Source: an uncultured Candidatus Saccharibacteria bacterium (GTDB taxonomy: Bacteria; Patescibacteriota; Saccharimonadia; Saccharimonadales; Saccharimonadaceae). From it: DNA of 64,000 nt. The stretch is from NCBI GenBank assembly GCA_963549285.1, contig CAUUYF010000001.1:25683-89682 (forward strand). Direction: 5' to 3'. Made by a program: the position numbers and the translations under genes. Positions 5,689-57,157 of the stretch are shown piece after piece. The notes under the pieces were generated by a model, which was given only the letters and a program-made list of their open reading frames with translations, did not search any database and was not told where the DNA came from. Position 1 is the first letter of the stretch, and the number at the start of each line of letters is the position of its first letter.

Positions 5689-5926
5689 TTGGGCGGCTAT
5701 CATCTTAATCGTTGCCATCGTCGGCTTGACTTCGTACTTCGTAGTCGGGGCGATCATGCCTTCACCGGCCGATAGCCTGCAGACAGTCCAGATAGCTCCG
5801 ACTATTGAGAGCAAGGTTGACGAGCCGGATAAGAAGATCTTCTCTGACACCGCCATCAATCCGACCGTTCGGACAACTATCGGTGACCAGTCCAACCAGC
5901 ACCCCTTTAACCTGGAGAACAAATAG
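5675..5926 (+). CDS. small single-pass membrane protein of the pil operon
   Basis: AAGGAG RBS upstream, TM helix AAIILIVAIVGLTSYFVVGAI, overlaps the end of the PilO-like gene. Confidence 0.45.
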   Translation: MRKSDWAAIILIVAIVGLTSYFVVGAIMPSPADSLQTVQIAPTIESKVDEPDKKIFSDTAINPTVRTTIGDQSNQHPFNLENK

Positions 5927-5931
5927 GTGGT

Positions 5932-7698
5932 ATGGCAATCCTGACCGACGAGTCTCGTGCTAAGATTGAGGCCTACTTTATAGAAGCAGGCCTTTTTACC
6001 GATGACCAGCTCGAGCATTTTCGTCGCAAGGCACAGGCAGAGAATGAGCCTCTCTTTGCTTATTTGATGCGAGAGGAGATCATTAACGATGAGCAGCTAG
6101 CTGAGGCGACGGCTCGCACCAGTGGTACGCCTTATGTCAACTTGTCGCACGCTATCATCGATAGTAGTGTCTTAGCACTTCTACCGATGGAGGTGGCGCA
6201 ACGTTTCATGGCTGTGCCGCTGGGTGAGACTAACGAAGGTGGGGCAGAGCGCTTGGCGGTCGCCATGCTTGATGCTAATAACGTCCAGGCAGTTGACTTC
6301 CTGTCGAATACCATTGGTCGTCCGATCAAAGTCTACATGGCGAGCGAATCGGGCATCAATAACGTCCTGTCGCAGTACCGGATGGATGTTGATGAGGGGG
6401 TCCGAGCTTCGCTTGACAGTAACGCTCCTAAGATCACCAGCAATGCTCAGGTGATTGTCCAGGATTCGCCGATCTCTAAGGTGCTGAACCAGCTGCTTGA
6501 GTATGCCCAGCGGGTTCGGGCCTCAGATATCCACATTGAGCCGAGCGAGAATCAGCTAACCATTCGTTGTCGGATTGACGGCGTACTCCGAGTAGTGATG
6601 GTTCTACCCAAGTCAACTGAGGCGGCACTAGTCTCTCGGATCAAGATCTTATCTAACCTCAAGATTGACGAGCATCGCAAGCCGCAGGATGGTCAGTTCA
6701 CTGTCATGGTCGGCGAGAAAGAGGTTGACCTTCGTATCGCTATCTCACCGGTCGTCTGGGGTGAGCAGGTGGTGATCCGCTTGCTGGATAAGTCAGGTAG
6801 CACCTTTAAGCTGGAGGATATGGGCTATGCTAGCCGAGCTCTCCGGATGATTCGACGGGGGATTGCTCGGCCTAATGGCATGATTCTGACCTCCGGACCG
6901 ACCGGCTCAGGTAAGTCGACCTCGCTCTACGCTCTGGTCCAAGAGATCTATAGCGAGAAGATCAATATCGTCACCCTGGAGGATCCGGTCGAGTACAAGA
7001 TGGAGGGAGTGAATCAGATCCAGGTTAATCCTGCCGTTGGGCTGACCTTTGCTAATGGGCTACGCTCTATCCTGCGCCAAGACCCTGATGTCGTCCTGGT
7101 CGGCGAGATCCGAGATAGTGAGACGGCTAACCTGGCGGTTCAGGCAGCTCTGACCGGGCACCTTGTTCTCTCGACTCTGCACACCAACTCGGCGGCTGGC
7201 ATCTTGCCTCGTCTACTGGATATGGGAGTAGAGCCGTTCCTGATCGCCTCGACGATCAATACCGTCATCGGTCAGCGTCTGGTTCGTCGAGTCTCGGCAG
7301 ATAAAGAGTCGTATCAGAGCGACCCGCTACAGACCGAGATGATCAGAAACGTGGTCGGGCCGCTCCTGCCGAGGACGCCTGACGAGATTCAGACGATCGG
7401 TCAGGACTTAGGCTACGCTAATCTGCCCCTGCAGGATTCGGCCTCCTTTACCCTGGTCAAGGGTAAAGAGACGGCTACTACGCCGGGTGGTTTCCGAGGT
7501 CGGATGGGCCTCTACGAGGTGATGGAAGTGACTGACGAAGTGCAGAAGCTGATCATCGGGCATGCTACCTCCAGCCAGATCCAGCAGCTGGGCATTGCCC
7601 AGGGGATGATCCCGATGCACCAAGATGGCTTCCTCAAGGCGCTGACCGGGCAGACCACCATTGAAGAAGTTAACCGAGTGGCGGCTAATATTGCATAA
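5932..7698 (+). CDS. pilB: type IV pilus assembly ATPase PilB (GspE family)
   Basis: N-terminal GSPII_E_N-like region, Walker A SGPTGSGKSTSL, Asp box, VLVGEIRD, His box TGHLVLSTLHTN. Confidence 0.9.
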   Translation: MAILTDESRAKIEAYFIEAGLFTDDQLEHFRRKAQAENEPLFAYLMREEIINDEQLAEATARTSGTPYVNLSHAIIDSSVLALLPMEVAQRFMAVPLGETNEGGAERLAVAMLDANNVQAVDFLSNTIGRPIKVYMASESGINNVLSQYRMDVDEGVRASLDSNAPKITSNAQVIVQDSPISKVLNQLLEYAQRVRASDIHIEPSENQLTIRCRIDGVLRVVMVLPKSTEAALVSRIKILSNLKIDEHRKPQDGQFTVMVGEKEVDLRIAISPVVWGEQVVIRLLDKSGSTFKLEDMGYASRALRMIRRGIARPNGMILTSGPTGSGKSTSLYALVQEIYSEKINIVTLEDPVEYKMEGVNQIQVNPAVGLTFANGLRSILRQDPDVVLVGEIRDSETANLAVQAALTGHLVLSTLHTNSAAGILPRLLDMGVEPFLIASTINTVIGQRLVRRVSADKESYQSDPLQTEMIRNVVGPLLPRTPDEIQTIGQDLGYANLPLQDSASFTLVKGKETATTPGGFRGRMGLYEVMEVTDEVQKLIIGHATSSQIQQLGIAQGMIPMHQDGFLKALTGQTTIEEVNRVAANIA

Positions 7699-11578: not shown

Positions 11579-12132
11579 CATCAGAGCGGAGGTAGAGTCC
11601 GTAATTTCCCTCCATGCATAACTCTATAGTGTACGAGTAGTACAGGTGGTCTCCTCAGGCTCCAGCACGATGCTTAACACTAGTAACCGCAGAGAGGACT
11701 TGAGGTGTAATAACGCTTTACTATGTCAAGTTAGCCTGACTAGCATCAGCTGGACAGGTTGGCACCGTATAAACTACCACGTGCACTGGATAGCTTACTG
11801 ATATATCAACAGCCTTCGTCAACCACACTGTACTACTCGTACCTAGGAGTGCTTGTTTTAATCAAGGTCAGACTACGGAATGAAACCGGGAAATTACAGG
11901 TGCACCAAAAGGGTGCATGTTGTCTTTCATCTACATCGTCATTTCCTGAAGACTGTGCACGCTTGAAGCTCAGCAGTGCACGAGCCAGCCAGGCGGGTCT
12001 GAGGGAAATGATGATGTAGACGAAGAGTGAGGGCTGTAGTAACGAGTAATCCGGGGAAGAGGAGACCACCTGTACTACTCGTACAGAGAGGAGCTATACG
12101 TAGAGGGGAAATTACAAATCCTGCTCTGATGC
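11578..12132 (+). repeat. L element copy 1 (full length, both arms, carries nested S element)
   Basis: The 5' arm GCATCAGAGC...GTAATTTCCC...GTACGAGTAGTACAGGTGGTCTCCTC is mirrored by the 3' arm GAGGAGACCACCTGTACTACTCGTAC...GGGGAAATTAC...GCTCTGATGC (26 bp perfect). Internal modules are shared with copies at 13231, 30515, 36817 and 45857. Confidence 0.9.
11661..11758 (+). mobile_element. S element copy 1 (about 98 bp, MITE-like) inserted inside L copy 1
   Basis: The other four L copies read CTCCTCAGGC|(T/C)TGGC without interruption. Here 98 bp intervene, bounded by imperfect inverted ends CCAGCACGATGC / GCATCAGCTGG. Homologous to 18044-18150 (inverted) and 58512-58610. Confidence 0.8.
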
Positions 12133-12144: not shown

Positions 12145-13080
12145 ATGATCTATTTCCTCCACGGTGACAACGACTACCTGATCAGCCAGCGAGTCAAAGA
12201 ATTACGCCAAGCATTTGCTCAGAAACACGGCACCGGTGCTATCACCACCATTGACGGCACCGAAGTAGCGCCGGCTGACCTGGCCTCTCAGCTAACTGCC
12301 CTTAGCCTCTTCGACCCTTATCGGCTAGTCATCGTCTCAGCCATTACCGCCCAGGCGGGCAACTGGACCATGCTGGAGACGAACCTGGCTCATATCCCCG
12401 AGCAAACCACCGTCATCCTGACTGATATTAAAGCTCTGAGCAAAGTGCGCAACCTCACCATCACTCGCACCACGAAGGAGCTGAGGCGCCTCGGCGCCAC
12501 GGTAGAGAAGTTTGACCTGGCTAAGAGTAGCTATCAGCTCCGACCGTGGCTGGAGGCGGAGCTCAAGCGCCACCAGCTGAGTGTCGAGCGAGGCGTTACT
12601 GATAAACTGCTCGAGCTAACGGCGGGTGAGGAGAACCAGCAAGCTCGTCTCAAGCTGGAGCTGGACAAGCTGGCGCTACTAAGTGGCGAATTAACGGTTC
12701 GGCTGGTCGAGCAGTATGTTCAGCCCAGCCCCCAGACTAATGCCTTTGCTATCCTAGAGGCAGGATTAGCTGGCGATCAAGCTAAGGTGGCGCAACTGCT
12801 TGACCGGCTGATTACAGCGGGGGAGGATAGTAATCGCTTCCTGGGGCTACTGGCTTCACAAGCCCTAGCCCTGGCCGGCGTCTTGACCGGTGCTAAGGTC
12901 AAGCTCAGCCCCTATCAACTGAATCAGACTCGCCAACTGGCTGAGCGCCTAGGCGATCGTCAGCTATCCCGGCGACTAGGCGAGGTTGTCGAGAAGCTCG
13001 CCCAGCTGGATGGCAAGGTTAAACTATCCGCACCGGACGAAGCTTGGCTACATATCCGCTCTACACTGAGCAATATATAG
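12145..13080 (+). CDS. holA: DNA polymerase III delta subunit
   Basis: MIYFLHGDNDYLISQRVKELRQAF start and about 310 aa helical C-terminus typical of HolA. Low-identity family, so moderate confidence. Confidence 0.7.
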   Translation: MIYFLHGDNDYLISQRVKELRQAFAQKHGTGAITTIDGTEVAPADLASQLTALSLFDPYRLVIVSAITAQAGNWTMLETNLAHIPEQTTVILTDIKALSKVRNLTITRTTKELRRLGATVEKFDLAKSSYQLRPWLEAELKRHQLSVERGVTDKLLELTAGEENQQARLKLELDKLALLSGELTVRLVEQYVQPSPQTNAFAILEAGLAGDQAKVAQLLDRLITAGEDSNRFLGLLASQALALAGVLTGAKVKLSPYQLNQTRQLAERLGDRQLSRRLGEVVEKLAQLDGKVKLSAPDEAWLHIRSTLSNI

Positions 13081-13099
13081 TGGATATCCGGCTGGACAG

Positions 13100-13195
13100 G
13101 CCCAGCTGGATGGTAAAACAAAGCAATCTACACCAGACCAAGCTTGGCTCTACATCCGCTCCACGCTGAGTAATATATAGCGGAGTAATATATAG
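13100..13195 (+). repeat. degenerate duplicate of the last ~80 bp of holA (plus a third 15-bp stub)
   Basis: 13100-13180 aligns with 13001-13080. Translated in frame it gives AQLDGKTKQSTPDQAWLYIRSTLSNI* versus the holA tail AQLDGKVKLSAPDEAWLHIRSTLSNI*. GAGTAATATATAG recurs at 13183-13195. Confidence 0.8.
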
Positions 13196-13230: not shown

Positions 13231-13820
13231 GTAGCTCAGAGCAAAATCCGTAATTTCCCTCTATATATAACTCTATGGCATACGAGTAGTACAGGTGGTC
13301 TCCTCAGGCTTGGCACCGTATAAACTACCACGTGCACTGGATAGCTTACTGCTATATCAACAGCCTTCGTCAACCACACTGTACTACTCGTACCAGGAGC
13401 ATTCATCTCCGACTGAAGTCGGACTAAGAAATGAGACCGGGGAAATTACGGGTGTATCAGCTAGCTTACTTATGTATCAACAGCCTTCGTCAACCATCGA
13501 GTACTGCTCTTTACTCACAGGAAAGCTTTCATGGGGGGGCGGATTCATCACAGACAACCGAAGACTAATCAATGTCCTACAAGTAATCAATCGCCAGTGG
13601 TACATTATGGGCGCCAGGTCTGAGGTTGATGTGATGAATCTATCAGCCCCCCATATAAAGTATTAGATAGCCCTTAATACATAAAGGGTGTCTTTTGTCT
13701 TTCACTCTATTAGTCATTTCCTGAAGACTGTGCACGCTTGAAGCTCAGCAGTGCACGAGCCAGCCAGGCGGGTCTGAAGGAAATGATAATAGAGTGAAGA
13801 ATGAGGGCTATAGTGATTAG
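13231..13820 (+). repeat. L element copy 2 (no 3' arm; expanded middle)
   Basis: Same 5' arm, module B and domain D as the other copies. Extra partial module-B duplicate at 13463-13509 and an inserted hairpin unit with 20-bp inverted repeats at 13533-13552 / 13630-13652. Confidence 0.88.
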
Positions 13821-30514: not shown

Positions 30515-30985
30515 TCCTCATCTACATCATCATTTCCTTTGTAGCCGCCCGGCTAGTTACTTGTCACTATAGTCTTCATTCTTCACTCTATGTTAATCTG
30601 TAGCTCAAAGCAAAATCTGTAATTTCCCTCCAACGTATAACTTGAGTTTGTACGAGTAGTACAGGTGGTCTCCTCAGGCTTGGCACCGTATAGACTACCA
30701 CGTGCACTGGATAGCTTACTGATATATCAACAGCCTTCGTCAACCACACTGTACTACTCGTACCTAGGAATGCCTGCTTTAATTGAGATTAGATTAAGAA
30801 ATGAGACTAGGGAAATTACAGACATAACCTTCCTTCCGCCTCAAAGGGTGTCTTTCGTCCTTCGTCTGCGTCAGTCATTTCCTGAAGACTGTGCACGCTT
30901 GAAGCTCAGCAGTGCACGAGCCAGCCAGGCGGGTCTGAGGAAAATGATAATAGAGCGAAGAATGAGGGCTGGAGTAGCGAGTGAT
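30515..30985 (+). repeat. L element copy 3 (no 3' arm) with an extra inverted end-module on its left
   Basis: Core from GTAGCTCAAAGC...GTAATTTCCC (30619) to ...GAATGAGGGCTGGAGTAGCGAGTG. At 30563-30589, CACTATAGTCTTCATTCTTCACTCTAT is the inverted match of the element's own 3' end. 30520-30538 resembles the domain-D stem. Confidence 0.85.
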
Positions 30986-35148: not shown

Positions 35149-36816
35149 ATGACGGATATTGAGATACCCCTAGGCAAGCGGACTCGACGGTACCGCCTGC
35201 TTGAGATATTGCCGGGAGCAATCTCGATAGGGGCGGTGATTCTACTGGTCTTGCTGAGCTTTCTTAGCCCGCTGATTGCCTCGCTATACATACTTTCGCT
35301 AGTCCTGCTGACCTTCGTCCGAGCGGTTACCACGGCGTATCGGACGATCCAGGGGCGCTTGGCGATGCAACGCACCTCGGCGCTTGATTGGGCGGGGCGA
35401 CTGGATGACCTAAGGCACCCGGCTGAAGCGTTAGCCCGCTACCGGCAGATGCCGAGTAAAAAAGTTGCTCAGGAGTATACACTGGCTGACCACATAGCTA
35501 AGCTAAGTTATCTAACTGAACACAAAAATATGTGTATCGACCCAAAACAGATCGTCAATGTGGTTATCGTTGCTTTATATAACGAGAGCTACCAGGTGCT
35601 TGGTCCGACTATGCAGAACTTAGCTGAGCTGGACTATGATATCAAGCATAATCTAGTGGTCTTCATCGCTTACGAAGAACGGGGTGGTCAAAATGCCCTA
35701 GATACCGTGGCTCAGATTAAGGAGTGCTGGTCGGGAGTATTTCGTGACCTGGTTTTTGTGCAACATCCGGCTGATCTACCTGACGAGGTGATGGGTAAAG
35801 GACCGAATCTGACCTACGCCGGCCCGCAAGTCTCAGCCTGGGTTAAGCGTCACCGGATTGACCCTGGTAATGTCATCGTGACCACTCTAGATTCTGATAA
35901 CAAGCCCGACAGGCAGTATTTCTCCTACCTGACATACCGGTGGATCACGACTGAGAATAGGCAACAATGCTCCTTCCAGCCGATATGTCTGTTTAACAAC
36001 AACATCTGGGATGCGCCGGCTCCGATGCGAGTGGTAGCGCTGTCTAATTCTTTCTGGAACGTCATCTCGTCAATGCGCCCCAATACCCTAAAGAACTTTG
36101 CTTCACACTCGCAAGGGCTGTGGGCGCTGGAACAGATGAACTATTGGAGTAAGCGGACGATCGTCGAGGACGGACATCAATACTGGCGCAGTTATTTCTT
36201 CTTTGACGGTAACTACGAGGTGATCCCGCTGCGGCTAAGCATCGGGCAGGATGCGGTGCTGTCGAGTACCTACAGGCGGACGCTCAAGGCGCAGTTTATT
36301 CAGATGCGGCGCTGGGCATACGGTGCTTCGGACGACGCCTATATCGCCACTCGGCTGATGAGCGGCAAGTTCCGGGGGAGCTTACTGGACGGTTGGGCTC
36401 GTTTCTTCCGCTCGCTTGAGGGGCACGTCTCACTGGCCTGTATGGCGCCGATCGTTGGCTTCGGCGCTTTCGCTCCTCTCTACATCAATCCAATCGCCGC
36501 CCATAATAGCATCCTGGTCAATGATTTACCGCTGATCGTCTCTCGAGTACAGCAGATAGCGGTGGTTGGGCTGCTGATCACGGTAATTACTTCACTCTCT
36601 ATGCTACCGACTCGTCCGAAGTGCTATCGCAAAGGTAGAAGCTTGCTAATGGTGCTGCAGTGGGCGCTGATGCCGATCAATGCCATCGTCTATAGTAGTG
36701 CTTCGGCTTATGCTGCTCAGTGGCGACTACTGACGGGCAACTACATGGAGAAGTTTGATGTGACCGAAAAGGCGATCAAGCAGGTCAAACCCAAAGCCAC
36801 CAAGCCTAGGCGCTAG
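35149..36816 (+). CDS. processive family-2 glycosyltransferase (membrane-embedded, cellulose/chitin-synthase-like)
   Basis: VIVALYNES, TLDSDNKPD and QMRRWAYG (QxxRW) motifs with flanking TM helices. Start at MTDIEIPLG after GAGGAA. Confidence 0.75.
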   Translation: MTDIEIPLGKRTRRYRLLEILPGAISIGAVILLVLLSFLSPLIASLYILSLVLLTFVRAVTTAYRTIQGRLAMQRTSALDWAGRLDDLRHPAEALARYRQMPSKKVAQEYTLADHIAKLSYLTEHKNMCIDPKQIVNVVIVALYNESYQVLGPTMQNLAELDYDIKHNLVVFIAYEERGGQNALDTVAQIKECWSGVFRDLVFVQHPADLPDEVMGKGPNLTYAGPQVSAWVKRHRIDPGNVIVTTLDSDNKPDRQYFSYLTYRWITTENRQQCSFQPICLFNNNIWDAPAPMRVVALSNSFWNVISSMRPNTLKNFASHSQGLWALEQMNYWSKRTIVEDGHQYWRSYFFFDGNYEVIPLRLSIGQDAVLSSTYRRTLKAQFIQMRRWAYGASDDAYIATRLMSGKFRGSLLDGWARFFRSLEGHVSLACMAPIVGFGAFAPLYINPIAAHNSILVNDLPLIVSRVQQIAVVGLLITVITSLSMLPTRPKCYRKGRSLLMVLQWALMPINAIVYSSASAYAAQWRLLTGNYMEKFDVTEKAIKQVKPKATKPRR

Positions 36817-37207
36817 AATATGAGGGTAAAGCCCGTGATTGCCGTTGGCACCTGTAATTTCCCCTCCACGTATAGCTCTATAGTGTGCGAGCAGTACAGG
36901 TGGTCTCCTCAGGCTTGGCACCGTATAAACTACCACGTGCACTGGATAGCTTACTGATATATCAACAGCCTTCGTCAACCACACTGTACTACTCGTACCT
37001 AGGAGTGCTTGTTTTAATCAAGGTCAGACTACGGAATGAAACCGGGAAATTACAGGTGCACCAAAAGGGTGCATGTTGTCTTTCATCTACATCGTCATTT
37101 CCTGAAGACTGTGCACGCTTGAAGCCAGAGCTGTGTCACGAGCCAGCCAGGCGGGTCTGAAGGAAATGATGATGCAGATGAAGAATGAGGGGCTGAAGGT
37201 GCCGAAC
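36817..37207 (+). repeat. L element copy 4 (no 3' arm; domain D loop partly degenerate)
   Basis: Same modules as copy 1, including the type-I variable hairpin. The inner hairpin of domain D is altered (GAAGCCAGAGCTGTGTCAC versus GAAGCTCAGCAGTGCAC). GGCACC/GGTGCC closes the unit. Confidence 0.88.
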
Positions 37208-40063: not shown

Positions 40064-43000
40064 TCAGCGCTGAGCAAAGATTGGTGCTAGGTGTACGCTC
40101 ATAAAGAGTGGCTCGCTACCGGTATTGGGTACGCCGGGTGCTTTGGGTGTAGTGGGTGCGCCGGGTACGGGTGACGGGTTTGGCTTGCCGTCATCCCACG
40201 GCGGTAGCTTGACGCAAGTAGATGGTATAGTGCCATCGACCGGCTGAATAGTCTCATACCTAGGGCCTCTGTTTTCGCCAATGATTCGATTGTAGGCGGC
40301 GCCACTCAGCCCGACACAGATAGTATCAGGCTGACTCTGTGGCACGAAGGCAAAGTCGTAGAAGGGGAGATCCTTAGGGTAGTCAGTATAGCCTGAATCA
40401 CCCCGGTACCTTGTCTCTACCTCGCCACTGAGGAGTTTAATCTTCTGCTTACCGCCGAGCAGAGTGCCGACGTCTATCGGGTCAACGCTCCTACCCACGA
40501 AGTACTGACTATGCCTATTGATATGCGTGTCAGTTATGGCGTAGATCGCTCCATCGGCACCACGGGCGACAGGGCCGAGAACATTAAAGAAGCTATCTAG
40601 GTGAGGCAATTTATCACTAGTTGATATCTTTGCCATATCGTGGATAGAGTCATTGCCTTCTCGGTAGCCGTAGTACCATAGACCACCCTGTCTGTCGATG
40701 GCATAATGACCGGCATAAGATAATTGCTTGAACCCGCCTCGTTTTTTAATCTCCGAGTTGGTGATCTCGCTGGTGGTACCGTCTTCCAGTACCCTCAGCA
40801 GCTTGTGATCGGAGGTCAGGGTGTAGTAACCTCCCTTATCCGGCTCGGGCTCTTCCGCTGTGGGTGTGCGATGCTTGATATGATCGACATCGAGGATGGT
40901 GACGCCACTGCTGAGCCGTGGCTTGATCCGATTTTTTGCCTCGTCGTGGTACTGGAGCTGGCTTGTGTCCAGATCGTAGTTCAGAGCAAAGATAGTGTCT
41001 TTGCTAAAGGCGAGGTAGTCACTCATGTTGTCAGGATGACTAGCTACATAGGAAGATAAACCGTTACCATTGCTGGGATCTATGCTTCTACCGAAGCCAA
41101 TGATGTGATGGGGTGACAACTCGCTCAGTGCGACCGGATGTATGATGGGTTTCTTGTCTTTATCAGATAGTCTGTGCCCCCAGTAGTACACTTTGCCGGA
41201 GCTGGTAATGGCTGCAAACGTATGGTAGTGATTTACTAGCTTGACAATCTTGTCGCCGTTAAAGAATCTAGTGATATCCTGGGGGTTACTGTAGTAGACG
41301 GGTGGCTTCTTATCAAGTGTCAAGCCGTAGTCGGTGTCGTTGCCAACCCCGCCTGCGATGTTATTACCCCAGGCATACAGCTTGCCGCTTTCGGTCAGCA
41401 CGACGGTCGTGCCGGCATAGTCTTGGTCTCGCCAGGTCTCCATGTTGCCCATTTTTACCTTACCGTAGTAGTCAAATGTGGCGGGTGAGTGAACCAGCTG
41501 GACGACTTTGTCATCTCTCAGCCCGGTATTGGGTACGCCGGGTGCTTTGGGTGTAGTGGGTACGCCGGGTGGCTGAGGCTGATTAGGAGAGGGCGTGGGT
41601 GCCGGTGGTTTAATTGGGTCGGGATTACCGGATGGTAGCTTGACGCAGGTCAGAGTGGCTTGCTTGCCGGGCTGTTGGCGTAGCTTACCCGTATTGGACG
41701 GAGGAAGCGCACCTAGCGACGGGGCATTATATCTAGATGCTCCGTCAATAGCGGTGCACACCAGATCTCGGTTATCTTCTTCGACGACGAATGAATAATC
41801 GTGGAGCAATTTATCGGCATATCCGGTGGCCTTGATAGTGTCGATATCGCCATGAAAGAGCCTGATTTCTTGTCGGCTGATGATGGTGGTCATGTCGATA
41901 GGTTTATACTTTAGGGTAAAACTATAGTTACTACCTTCTAGAAAGTAGATGTGGTTATCGGCACTGCGAACGACCAGAGGACGACTAAAGTGGTCCATAT
42001 CGGACTCACCATTGGAATTAACAAATTCTCGCAGAGCCGGTAGGACACCCTCAGCTACCTCTGTGGACATATCGACGATGTTACCACCGGGGTCTTCTTG
42101 AAGCTTATGACCATAAAACCACAACCCGCCCCGGTTATCGATGGCGTAATGGTGATGAATCTGCTTGATGCCACCTCGCTCAGCTATTTTAGAATTGGTA
42201 ATCTCGACGGCGGTACCGTCATATCCTACCTTAAAGAGCTTATTGTTTGAGGCAAGAACATAGATACCGCCCCTGTCGACTGATCCACCGACCCAGTGTT
42301 CTACAAAGTCGACTTGCCGAATGGCAGCTCCGTTTAGTTGAGGCTTAATAATCTCGGAAGCGTTGCCTCCGGAGTCATCATAATCAAGGGATGCATTATA
42401 AAAGATAGTATCGTCGCTATAGGCAAACCAGCCGTTAATATGACTCATATTTTCATGATCTACACCATCTGTTCCGCTATAGCCGGTAATGTGATAGGAG
42501 TCCAGTGCCCGGTACTTGGTTGGGTGATTGATAATTGCTTCGGGCTTGAGGTCATGGTGGTAGGCTGAGCCCCAGCGATATAGCTTACCTGACTCGGTAA
42601 TGGCTATGGCGAGACTGCCTTTGTTGGTTAGTCTAGCTATCCTATCCCCATTAAAGTACTTAGTTATTTCCTGGGGTGCATTATAGTAACAGGGTGGTCG
42701 TTTGGGTAATATATCCTTTCCTTCTGCATTCTTGACGTAGGTGCAGACAGCGCCATTACCTACTCCGCCGTACATATTGTTGCCCCAGGCGTAAACCTTG
42801 CCGTTCTGAAGCAGGGCGATAGTCGTACCGGCGTAGGCGTTATCGTTATCATTTCCATCCCCCCAGCTGAATCCATCATAAGGCTGGCCGGGAGCGGCTA
42901 GGTGCAGTATCCGGACGATGTGGTTGGCTGTGTTTCCGCCCGACGACTGACCGGACTGTCTGGTGGTGATGCAGGTAGCTATTGCCGGACCGGCTATTAG

Positions 43001-45856: not shown

Positions 45857-46328
45857 GGTGCTAAGCTTCTTCGTTAATCTTTCATTTATATATCATATCT
45901 GTAATTTCCCTATATATACATAACTCTATGCGTACGAGCAGTACAGGTGGTCTCCTCAGGCCTGGCGACGTAGCTAGCACCACTGGCAATTGCTAGCTTA
46001 CTGCTGTATCAACAGCCTTCGTCAACCACACTGTACTACTCGTACCTAGGAATGCCTGCTTTAATTGAGATTAGATTAAGAAATGAGACTAGGGAAATTA
46101 CAGACATAACCTTCCTTCCGCCTCAAAGGGTGTCTTTCGTCCTTCGTCTGCGTCAGTCATTTCCTGAAGACTGTGCACGCTTGAAGCTCAGCAGTGCACG
46201 AGCCAGCCAGGCGGGTCTGAAGGAAATGATGACGAGACGAAGAGTGGGGGTGCTAAGTAGCAGAGCCTGAGGAGACCACACTGCACTACTCGCACCAACT
46301 CAAGCTATGCGTATAGGGAAATTACAGA
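45857..46328 (+). repeat. L element copy 5 (both arms present, 3' arm decayed)
   Basis: 5' arm TCTGTAATTTCCC...GTACGAGCAGTACAGGTGGTCTCCTCAGG and 3' arm CCTGAGGAGACCACACTGCACTACTCGCAC...GGGAAATTACAGA. Type-II variable hairpin shared with copy 3, and a divergent module-B hairpin. Confidence 0.88.
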
Positions 46329-52943: not shown

Positions 52944-52951
52944 AGGTTGCT

Positions 52952-52995
52952 GTCGGGTCAGACAAAATGTAAACATTTTGCTTGCCCCGACAGAC
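52952..52995. repeat. 44-bp direct repeat copy 1, internally palindromic
   Basis: GTCGGGTCAGACAAAATGTAAACATTTTGCTTGCCCCGACAGAC. It recurs at 53112-53155 with one mismatch and contains a 19-bp imperfect hairpin. Confidence 0.85.
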
Positions 52996-53111
52996 ATCAT
53001 TATATCCCCGGTGGGTATATAATGACTTCGGTGAAGCTCAGATCAAACCCTGAGATATCTCTCATAACCGAGGAAGACTTATGCTCCTGGCAGACACCAT
53101 TATTTTTGCCT

Positions 53112-53155
53112 GCCGGGTCAGACAAAATGTAAACATTTTGCTTGCCCCGACAGAC
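53112..53155. repeat. 44-bp direct repeat copy 2
   Basis: GCCGGGTCAGACAAAATGTAAACATTTTGCTTGCCCCGACAGAC. Confidence 0.85.
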
Positions 53156-53196: not shown

Positions 53197-53273
53197 TGGT
53201 GGGCGATTCAGGACTTGAACCTGAGACCTCGTCATTATCAGTGACGCGCTCTAACCAGCTGAGCTAATCGCCC
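53197..53273 (-). tRNA. tRNA-Ile (anticodon GAT), CCA encoded
   Basis: Reverse complement GGGCGATTAGCTCAGCTGGTTAGAGCGCGTCACTGATAATGACG..., anticodon loop CTGATAA. Confidence 0.9.
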
Positions 53274-53300
53274 AAGTTACTCTATTGTAACACCTAAAAG

Positions 53301-53377
53301 TGGTGGAGATAAAGAGGCTCGAACTCTTGACCTCCTGCTTGCAAAGCAGGCGCTCTAGCCAACTGAGCTATATCCCC
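53301..53377 (-). tRNA. tRNA-Ala (anticodon TGC), CCA encoded
   Basis: Reverse complement GGGGATATAGCTCAGTTGGCTAGAGCGCCTGCTTTGCAAGCAGG... with a G3:U70 pair. TTGCGT-18-TAGAAT promoter upstream on the minus strand. Confidence 0.9.
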
Positions 53378-56746: not shown

Positions 56747-57150
56747 GCCAGTTTGCCGGATGGTCGCTGGTGAGGCGATGGCCTCACGAGAGGAAAGTCC
56801 GGGCAGTGTAGAGCAACGACAGTCGCTAACGGCGACCGGGGGTAACCCTAGGGAAAGTGCCACAGAAACGATACCGCCCAGCACCTTTACTAGCTTTGTG
56901 TCGGATGTCGGCCGAGTCGACGGTAACTCGCAGAGCTAGTAAAGGTGCCGGGTAAGGGTGAAAGGAGTGAGGTAAGAGCTCACAGTCGGATGCGGTGACG
57001 CATCAGAGAGGTAAACCCTGTTGACTGCAAGGAGATCGGGTCACTGGTGGCTCGCCAGCCGATCGTTTTAACCCGCTAGACGTGATTAGCAATAGTCATG
57101 GTAGATAGATGACCATCTAAACAGGACCCGGCTTATAGGCAGACTGGTAG
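56747..57150 (+). ncRNA. rnpB: RNase P RNA (bacterial type A-like)
   Basis: Conserved GAGAGGAAAGTCCGGGC (P4 5' strand), AGGGTGAAA region and ACAGGACCCGGCTTATAGG (P4 3' strand). P1 pairs GCCAGTTTGCC with GGCAGACTGGT. Confidence 0.88.
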
Positions 57151-57157
57151 ACTTAAT

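Follow-up and report, generated by a model that had tools for sequence, protein, structure and literature searches.

Domain D, a discrete module of about 105-135 nt that occurs five times in the window (the whole 64,000-nucleotide stretch of Candidatus Saccharibacteria DNA analysed here), combines a near-invariant core with a long stem that has taken on several sequence versions, each complementary to its own partner. The copies of D display covariation in the stem, discrete arm types, chimeric combinations of arms, insertion polymorphism, turnover of arm types at orthologous sites and a sharp boundary of conservation around the module. Selection for the helix is the likeliest explanation of the paired changes, though it falls short of proof. 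We hold with moderate confidence that D is a cis-acting structural module, folded as a single strand (RNA or ssDNA), of a non-autonomous, modular and mobile intergenic repeat of oral G5 Saccharibacteria. The strand that folds is most likely the + strand.

Domain D and the L element in the window

The preliminary description had placed five copies of domain D in the window, and all five were recovered where it had put them, on the + strand in each case and with the arm sequences as quoted. Its invariant loop of 55 nt needed correction on both counts. The core is 56 nt long, TGAAGACTGTGCACGCTTGAAGCTCAGCAGTGCACGAGCCAGCCAGGCGGGTCTGA (TGAAGACTGTGCACGC...GGGTCTGA), and is exact in four of the five copies, where no match is expected by chance, while the core of copy 4 departs from it by two 1-nt insertions and a few substitutions that preserve the inner hairpin. 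Nor is copy 4 a version of copy 1 with G:U changes when the + strand is read, since one change mends an A·C mismatch of copy 1 to A-U and the other does the reverse at an A-U pair, leaving A·C; G·U pairs arise only on the - strand. Copy 3 had rightly been recognised as a chimera of a 5' arm of the copy 5 type and a 3' arm of the copy 2 type, and it folds no better than its shuffles (z -1.5). Folding of copies 1, 2, 4 and 5 gave z values of -4.5 to -6.6, with none of 200 shuffles as good, on both strands. Pairing in copy 5 joins 46141-46164 to 46221-46242 as 8+5+8 bp with two bulged G residues. All five copies are intergenic and adjoin housekeeping genes, the neighbours being those for prepilin peptidase, holA, rpsT, a Xer-like recombinase, thrS, rpmB and an M50 protease.

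The module consists of a stem, P1, of 21-23 bp, a tandem G·A internal loop and the 56-nt core, which is predicted to form a small three-way junction, with the same predicted fold in every intact copy. P1 carries a bulged G, for which type A has a G·U pair, at nine pairs from the core; type C has a second bulged G, and the outer end of the fold is a G·U-rich extension. The symmetric tandem G·A loop (UGAA/UGAA) lies between P1 and P2, and the helices of the core are P2 (AGACU/GGUCU), P3 (GUGCAC...GUGCAC with a small top) and P4 (GCC-AGCCA-GGC).

Domain D sits at the 3' side of a larger, modular and ORF-less repeat of about 350-520 nt, termed L. A conserved unit of about 200 nt (M1) precedes D in about 90% of copies, in fixed order and orientation, and the inverted-repeat pair that bounds it, TGTAATTTCCC...GGGAAATTACA, is found 12 times in the window, where 0.6 would be expected. 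Within the M1 unit of copy 5, an inner stem (GTACGAGCAGTACAGGTGG/CCACACTGTACTACTCGTAC) encloses a conserved core. As in a MITE, L has terminal inverted repeats, here of 11-60 nt. In copies 1 and 5, which are full length, about 60 nt of the two ends pair with each other, so that the whole element folds end to end, while copies 2-4 have no right end. Features of the window copies, the arm types and the empty alleles of one insertion site are collected in Table 1.

Table 1. Positions and composition of domain D, the L element and related features (window coordinates unless a locus is named)
Feature	Position	Strand	Description
Copy 1 domain D	11923..12027	+	arms A1/a1', core 11947-12002, one A·C mismatch, one G·U
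Copy 2 domain D	13698..13803	+	arms B/b, core 13722-13777, one bulged G
Copy 3 domain D	30859..30962	+	5' arm type C, 3' arm type b; stem largely broken
Copy 4 domain D	37080..37184	+	arms A1/a2, one A·C, variant core
Copy 5 P1 5' arm	46141..46164	+	type C CCTTCGTCTGCGTCAGTCATTTCC, two bulged G
Copy 5 core, 56 nt	46165..46220	+	tandem G·A loop, P2, P3, P4
Copy 5 P1 3' arm	46221..46244	+	type c AGGAAATGATGACGAGACGAAGAG
Exact cores	11947-12002, 13722-13777, 30883-30938, 46165-46220	+	
Copy 4 variant core	37103-37160	+	different P3 top
Upstream module (M1 unit) of copy 5	45900..46102	+	bounded by TGTAATTTCCC...GGGAAATTACA
M1 unit equivalents	11600-11898, 13249-13450, 30618-30820, 36853-37054		
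Upstream-module core region	45932-46045; also 11631-11842, 13281-13393, 30650-30763, 36885-36998		also in loci L119, L121
Outer 5' flank of D	46119..46140	+	small hairpin ending AAGGGTG, then U-rich tract
Small-hairpin equivalents	11900-11930, 13670-13697		
Right end of full-length element	46261..46326	+	inverted complement of left 60 nt
Right-end equivalent in copy 1	12046-12116		
Arm type A1/a1			5' arm ATCTACATC; 3' arm GATGTAGAT
Arm type A2/a2			5' arm ATCTGCATC; 3' arm GATGCAGAT
Arm type B/b			5' arm ACTCTATTA; 3' arm TAATAGAGT
Arm type C/c			5' arm GTCTGCGTCA; 3' arm TGACGAGAC
Empty alleles of copy 4 site	L104:6081-6190; L120:19921-20030		

The upstream module resembles D in its construction, with a conserved core (CCTCAGGC...CAACAGCCTTCGTCAA) between alternative self-complementary stems. 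The stem versions seen were GTACGAGTAGTACAGGTGG/CCACACTGTACTACTCGTAC, CAGAGTAGGGCGTATGG/CCATATCGCCCTACTCT (with a compensated T>C/A>G variant) and AGAGTAGCTCACCTAGCTTCC/GGAAGCTTAGGTGAGCTACTCT, and chimeras occur here too. In copy 1 this module holds an extra nested segment of about 100 nt (11663-11765), bounded by CCAGC...GCTGG. Optional inserts of the same kind are present in loci L121, L123 and L124, which indicates that the element is built of nested hairpin modules.

Copies in related genomes

An exact 20-mer of the core was compared with GTDB genomes and matched at least 118 stretches. Among the matches listed, all were from Candidatus Saccharibacteria, including Ca. Nanoperiomorbus (G5, oral), so that L is a repeat of oral G5, Nanoperiomorbus-like genomes; many of the matches lay at contig ends, which indicates that these repeats break metagenome assemblies. 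With the addition of eight metagenome contigs carrying the window's exact rpmB product, the set came to at least 113 copies (counted as cores), among them 76 distinct D sequences of full length. Across many species-level genomes the core hardly varies. When sorted by unique right flank the copies occupy at least 50 distinct sites, and with a single exception the scored copies fall outside long ORFs. A 5'-truncated remnant of D, comprising the 3' half of the core and the 3' arm, was observed just past a gene end at one orthologous site in three loci (L040:~5900-6000, L043 and L111).

Searches of phage, plasmid and viral-contig collections with the element gave no match. Rfam 15 covariance models run against the whole window at gathering score returned no family matching the element, and at E≤10 the element itself matched only miRNA-hairpin noise (E 2.1 and 8.8). 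A search of the literature on Saccharibacteria repeats found no description of the L family.

Paired changes in the stem

The claim of the preliminary description that the stem is kept complementary through paired changes is borne out by the 76 distinct full copies, in which covariation is well beyond chance. Over this alignment 98.7% of cells pair and 7 of the 39 pairs vary on both sides. Cells with both sides changed numbered 126, against 53±8 in shuffles (0/500), and the covariation score was 0.170, against 0.123±0.003 for shuffled and 0.015-0.093 for slid partners, in each case over copies that are related and recombining. The mean duplex energy of P1 was -28.8 kcal/mol with its own partner and -24.3 kcal/mol with swapped partners, with none of 5000 permutations as good.

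The variation is concentrated in a block of 9-10 bp, flanked on either side by conserved stem, which comes in the discrete types A1, A2, B and C, each fully complementary to its own partner. A switch between types needs several matched substitutions together with a matched C/G insertion, and thus descent alone cannot explain the pairing. Within type, arms and core are mostly 94-100% identical and the flanks 30-50% (ungapped), the 5' arm of type B being lower at 83% (ungapped). The bulged G (G·U in type A) stays in its position in over 90% of copies, and six have lost it. The variable block has no other match within the window, and a guide-like role for it was rejected on that ground.

Individual compensated changes were also found within types. 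An A-U>G-C change at position 8 of type A sets A1/a1 apart from A2/a2, and rare variants include U-A>C-G in L052 and A-U>G-C in both L066 and L126. One orthologous site presents a series of U-A (L116), U·G (L119) and C-G (L123). Covariation extends into the core, where it involves two pairs of P3, one apical pair and a junction pair (U-A>C-G); P3 switches from GUGCAC/GUGCAC to GUGUGC/GCACAC (in DNA, GTGCAC/GTGCAC to GTGTGC/GCACAC), and its 2-bp top from A-U to U-A. About 21 variant events were counted within types, and the 4 distinct compensated doubles among them are far more than chance would give, the probability of two random stem changes in one copy hitting partners compatibly being, by rough estimate, about 1-2%. 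The contrary possibility raised at the outset, that the stem variants are a few lineages copied by descent with no independent compensation, is not borne out: a few lineages do dominate (A1/a1, A2/a2, B/b and C/c), but independent compensated events exist. The exclusion of a protein or a plain sequence motif as the cause also stands, since indels and bulges separate the arm types and would throw any reading frame out of register. ORFs of 72-107 aa span copies of D, and a small protein was rejected as an explanation because their frame differs between arm types. As to selection for the helix, the pairing on which that claim was built is maintained, whereas selection itself has competitors in the chimeras, the turnover of arms and the restoration of pairs at the DNA level.

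The two arms are associated with one another (Cramér V 0.57, p 2e-12) more strongly than with the inner hairpin, which lies nearer and does not pair with them (0.32 and 0.15), and between the halves of the inner hairpin the coupling is tight (0.78). The stronger association between arms fits selection on pairing. It could also arise without selection, from short-tract gene conversion helped by the invariant flanks, if the tracts tend to replace the patch between the two invariant core segments.

Chimeras and recombination among copies

Non-matching arms were found in 22 of the 76 sequences and in 30 of 97 distinct arm pairs (~30%), and mixed forms of the inner hairpin in 7 of 76. Some chimera types occur at 3-4 sites, and so a copy can persist without an intact P1. 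Assembly error was rejected as their source: a C/a1' chimera is present at the same site in independent assemblies (L004 and L122), and the window holds a chimera too. At one orthologous site the arms are A1/a1, A2/b, B/b or C/c in different genomes, with flanks that are 92-97% identical. Such differences at the same genomic site indicate that recombination among copies shapes much of the pattern and that single copies are not under strong selection. Thus ectopic recombination between a few lineages explains much of what is seen in the stem. Copies 1 and 4 of the window (11759-11969 and 36915-37125) share 211 nt at 100% identity, ending inside the D core, and this resembles the tract of a recent gene conversion, the two copies lying 25 kb from each other.

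Exchange between the arms at the DNA level clearly happens. In L126 the 5' arm is the exact complement of its own 3' arm over 21 nt, with the canonical type's wobble and its mismatch removed together. The left arms of L123, L029 and L035 are the reverse complement of a 3'-type arm including its outer flank, the core being in either orientation within the same flanking context. About 95% of copies have the canonical orientation of arms and core. Processes that restore pairs in DNA, be it templated correction of inverted arms or recombination of oppositely oriented copies, are accordingly a live alternative to selection.

Insertion sites and mobility

The element is small, ORF-less, multi-copy (5 copies per 64 kb; at least 113 cores) and polymorphic for insertion. 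Copy 4 is an insertion of 36816..37195 (+) relative to the empty sites in L104 and L120, which are uninterrupted between GGCGCTA and AAGGTG, and in another related genome this site holds an element in the opposite orientation. The inserted sequence begins 37 nt ahead of the left inverted repeat, with GAATATGAGGG, a stretch similar to the 3' flank of D. In L121 the element at this site is flanked by GCGCTA/GCACTA, possibly a 6-bp duplication, which is missing from the window and from L124; no consistent target-site duplication was found at the insertion sites compared. Between rpmB and the M50 protease gene, D is present in all of the 17+ genomes examined and its neighbours differ: it stands alone (L123), follows one or two upstream units, lies in either orientation or adjoins a truncated older copy.

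An autonomous partner with the same ends was sought as inverted-repeat pairs 600-4000 bp apart enclosing a transposase, in about 1 Mb of related loci covering 8-20 kb around the matches, and none was found. An insertion sequence with an rve (integrase-core) transposase lies inside an L element at L123:19900-20216. Its end (TGTCAACAC...) is unrelated to those of L, and it was rejected as a partner because of this difference. A tyrosine (Xer-like) recombinase gene is located about 100 nt from copy 3; it was likewise set aside as a linked enzyme since it stands beside the element only at that one orthologous site.

Strand and transcription signals

In 74 of the 76 copies the + strand has the better fold, the mean difference from the - strand being 8.2 kcal/mol for the full module and 4.5 kcal/mol for the inner 105 nt. 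The + strand has several invariant G·U pairs, and the covariation reaches helices of 2-3 bp that a cruciform does not need. The advantage of the + strand is largely inherited from these shared G·U pairs and from the composition of the flanks, which are pyrimidine-rich on the 5' side and purine-rich on the 3' side. Single-sided changes in P1 fall into about 8 that preserve a wobble pair and about 9 that break the pair (A·C), an even split that carries no strand-specific signal. The asymmetry of G·U over A·C was therefore rejected as a strand test, being absent among single changes inside P1; it is strong in the outer flank alone, and there it is accounted for by base composition.

A promoter scan found no -35/-10 pair in D or just upstream of it, and a promoter role was rejected. 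D was also rejected as an intrinsic terminator, given that no U tract follows and that in the 3' flank the + strand is rich in purines and the - strand in A; the only terminator-like feature near D is the small hairpin with its U tract just upstream. Orientation relative to genes was biased in the raw counts (28 vs 12) and not significantly so once orthologous sites were collapsed (31 vs 19, p 0.12).

Other features of the window

Several features outside L were observed. A 46-nt palindrome, CTGTCGGGTCAGACAAAATGTAAACATTTTGCTTGCCCCGACAGAC, of a different repeat family occurs twice at 98% identity (52950-52995 and 53110-53155), 160 nt apart and beside tRNA-Ile and tRNA-Ala. These two genes, tRNA-Ile(GAT) and tRNA-Ala(TGC), are adjacent at 53197-53377 in the manner of an rRNA spacer, and no rRNA gene was detected in the 64-kb window. 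RNase P RNA of class A (56748-57151, 258.6 bits) measures 404 nt against a model of 367 nt, one of its hairpins being extended by an insertion of about 55 nt. The 3' end of a holA-like ORF and the stretch just past it (13000-13184), directly before copy 2, carry two tandem ~100-bp units with 79% identity. A 48-nt repeat, 98% identical, lies at 40119-40166 and 41523-41570, 1.4 kb apart within an ORF of 1011 aa on the - strand, and suggests an internally repetitive large protein.

Discussion

The reading that we prefer, a structural module of a mobile repeat, can be put as follows. The + strand would fold on itself into the long P1 helix carrying the three-way-junction core, of which the core and the adjoining stem segments would be constrained in sequence. 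The block of 9-10 bp in the middle of P1 would be constrained only to pair and could thus drift into several self-complementary versions. Copies with an intact fold would be those that are propagated or retained, the fold presumably being read by a trans-acting factor such as a transposition or processing enzyme, and selection would act mainly at the level of propagation of the element. After insertion, ectopic recombination and gene conversion with other copies would produce the roughly 30% of chimeric, mis-paired copies.

A serious, though rather unlikely, rival is that structure is under no selection at all, the arms being kept complementary by processes acting on DNA and the core being kept uniform by concerted evolution. 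Such processes would include templated correction of one arm by the other (through template switching at a quasipalindrome or gene conversion within the molecule), exchange between copies of opposite orientation, and long conversion tracts that move both arms together. The perfect 5' arm of L126, the reverse-complemented left arms of L123, L029 and L035, the loss of the bulged G in six copies, the wholesale replacement of arm types at orthologous sites, the identity shared by copies 1 and 4 and the single-sided changes without strand asymmetry would all be in keeping with such processes. However, templated correction should erase asymmetry, yet the bulged G survives in over 90% of copies, as does the second bulge in type C. 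Concerted evolution should likewise homogenise the arms, whereas 3-4 arm types coexist within genomes beside a near-uniform core; pure homogenisation would give neither result. Compensation is moreover found in core helices of 2-3 bp with short loops, where templating of one arm by the other is implausible. An invertible switch, in which the arms or the 60-nt terminal inverted repeats serve as recombination sites and the segment flips to alter expression of neighbouring genes, is highly improbable. While D and the whole element do occur in both orientations at rpmB-M50 in different strains, and a tyrosine recombinase gene does lie near copy 3, the oppositely oriented rpmB-M50 alleles differ in flanks and module types and so are not simple flips. 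The predominance of the canonical arm-core orientation, a 56-nt core without a promoter and the presence of that recombinase beside the element at a single orthologous site also argue against it.

A functional RNA at the level of the host, we consider, is also rather unlikely. D or the whole of L would then be transcribed, and the hairpin could be a place where RNA is processed or stabilised (an RNase III substrate, for instance), a small RNA that binds protein, or a catalytic or regulatory RNA of a kind not yet described. The invariant three-way junction would be the functional site, and the multiplicity of copies would be due to the RNA riding on a mobile element. Such a role would be consistent with covariation in helices that a cruciform would not need (the two P3 pairs and the A-U to U-A change in the 2-bp apical stem), with the near-invariance of the core across species-level genomes, with the greater stability of the + strand and with the retention of D at rpmB-M50 in spite of turnover around it, and bcr1 provides the precedent of a transcribed repeat with compensatory changes (PMC3184786). 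Set against this are the lack of an Rfam match at gathering score or E≤10, of a promoter in or just upstream of D and of a terminator after it, the loss of significance of the gene-orientation bias after de-duplication, stems that are broken in 30% of copies, the occurrence of both orientations at one site and the absence of an excess of G·U over A·C among single changes. Somewhat less probable again is the proposal that the core and the tandem G·A loop are the active or protein-binding site of an undescribed class of functional RNA that spreads on a mobile element among the ultra-small genomes of Saccharibacteria, with P1 as its covarying closing helix. Such a class could act as a processing signal or as a small ribozyme-like or riboregulatory module, and if it exists it would add to the small number of structured RNAs confined to one lineage that are known from the candidate phyla radiation.

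Saccharibacteria have very small genomes, of about 0.7 Mb in TM7x, in which there is little room for repeats, and even so a structured repeat is present every ~10-15 kb in this lineage. The repeats are substrates for recombination between distant sites. They offer a clear case, found in nature, of a stem evolving under the constraint of pairing while ectopic recombination is rampant, around a core that is almost identical across species, and, if transcribed, would constitute a new RNA element in an uncultivated, host-dependent group.

Comparison with known systems

Small multi-helix junctions are also found in hammerhead and other repeat-borne ribozymes, and D recalls these in having CUGAAGA beside a helix junction, GAAA further 3' and a multi-copy element as its setting. 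The hammerhead core (CUGANGA - stem II - GAA - stem III - UH) is, however, incomplete, as UCU intervenes before GAA after the would-be stem II, and no Rfam ribozyme was matched at E≤10. A box C/D motif or k-turn built on the UGA/CUGA pair was also rejected, there being no 3-nt bulge but instead the symmetric tandem G·A loop.

The BOX repeats of pneumococci, the Correia repeats of Neisseria and the ERIC repeats of enterobacteria, in a comparison that draws in part on a review (PMC3184786), resemble the D element in being modular and intergenic, in their terminal inverted repeats, in hairpins predicted to be strong and in an influence that they may have on transcripts. In contrast, D has no sequence similarity to any of them, and the TA duplication and IHF site of Correia were not seen in the D element. 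A three-way-junction core that is near-invariant across species is a feature of D that is unusual for repeats of this kind.

REPINs, which are REP doublets mobilised by RAYT transposases, are like D short, ORF-less, multi-copy and intergenic, form a long hairpin in ssDNA or mRNA and persist in a lineage, and compensatory changes have been reported in their hairpins (PMC3116915). Their ends are conserved (the REP 16-mers) and their central spacer is variable, whereas D reverses this arrangement, with a conserved centre and stem base and a variable internal block of the stem. Unlike a REPIN, D is one module of a larger element of about 350-520 nt with terminal inverted repeats of 11-60 nt. Two inverted, conserved REP ends around a variable pairing spacer were not found. 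Compensatory changes have also been reported for bcr1, a repeat of about 155 bp with a non-conserved genomic distribution and flanking 5-bp direct repeats (PMC3184786). The D element is without a consistent duplication and differs from bcr1 in phylum, sequence and fold. L, with its domain D, is a previously undescribed family of repeats, and the principle of matched changes that it follows is one already known in bacterial hairpin repeats from REPINs and bcr1.
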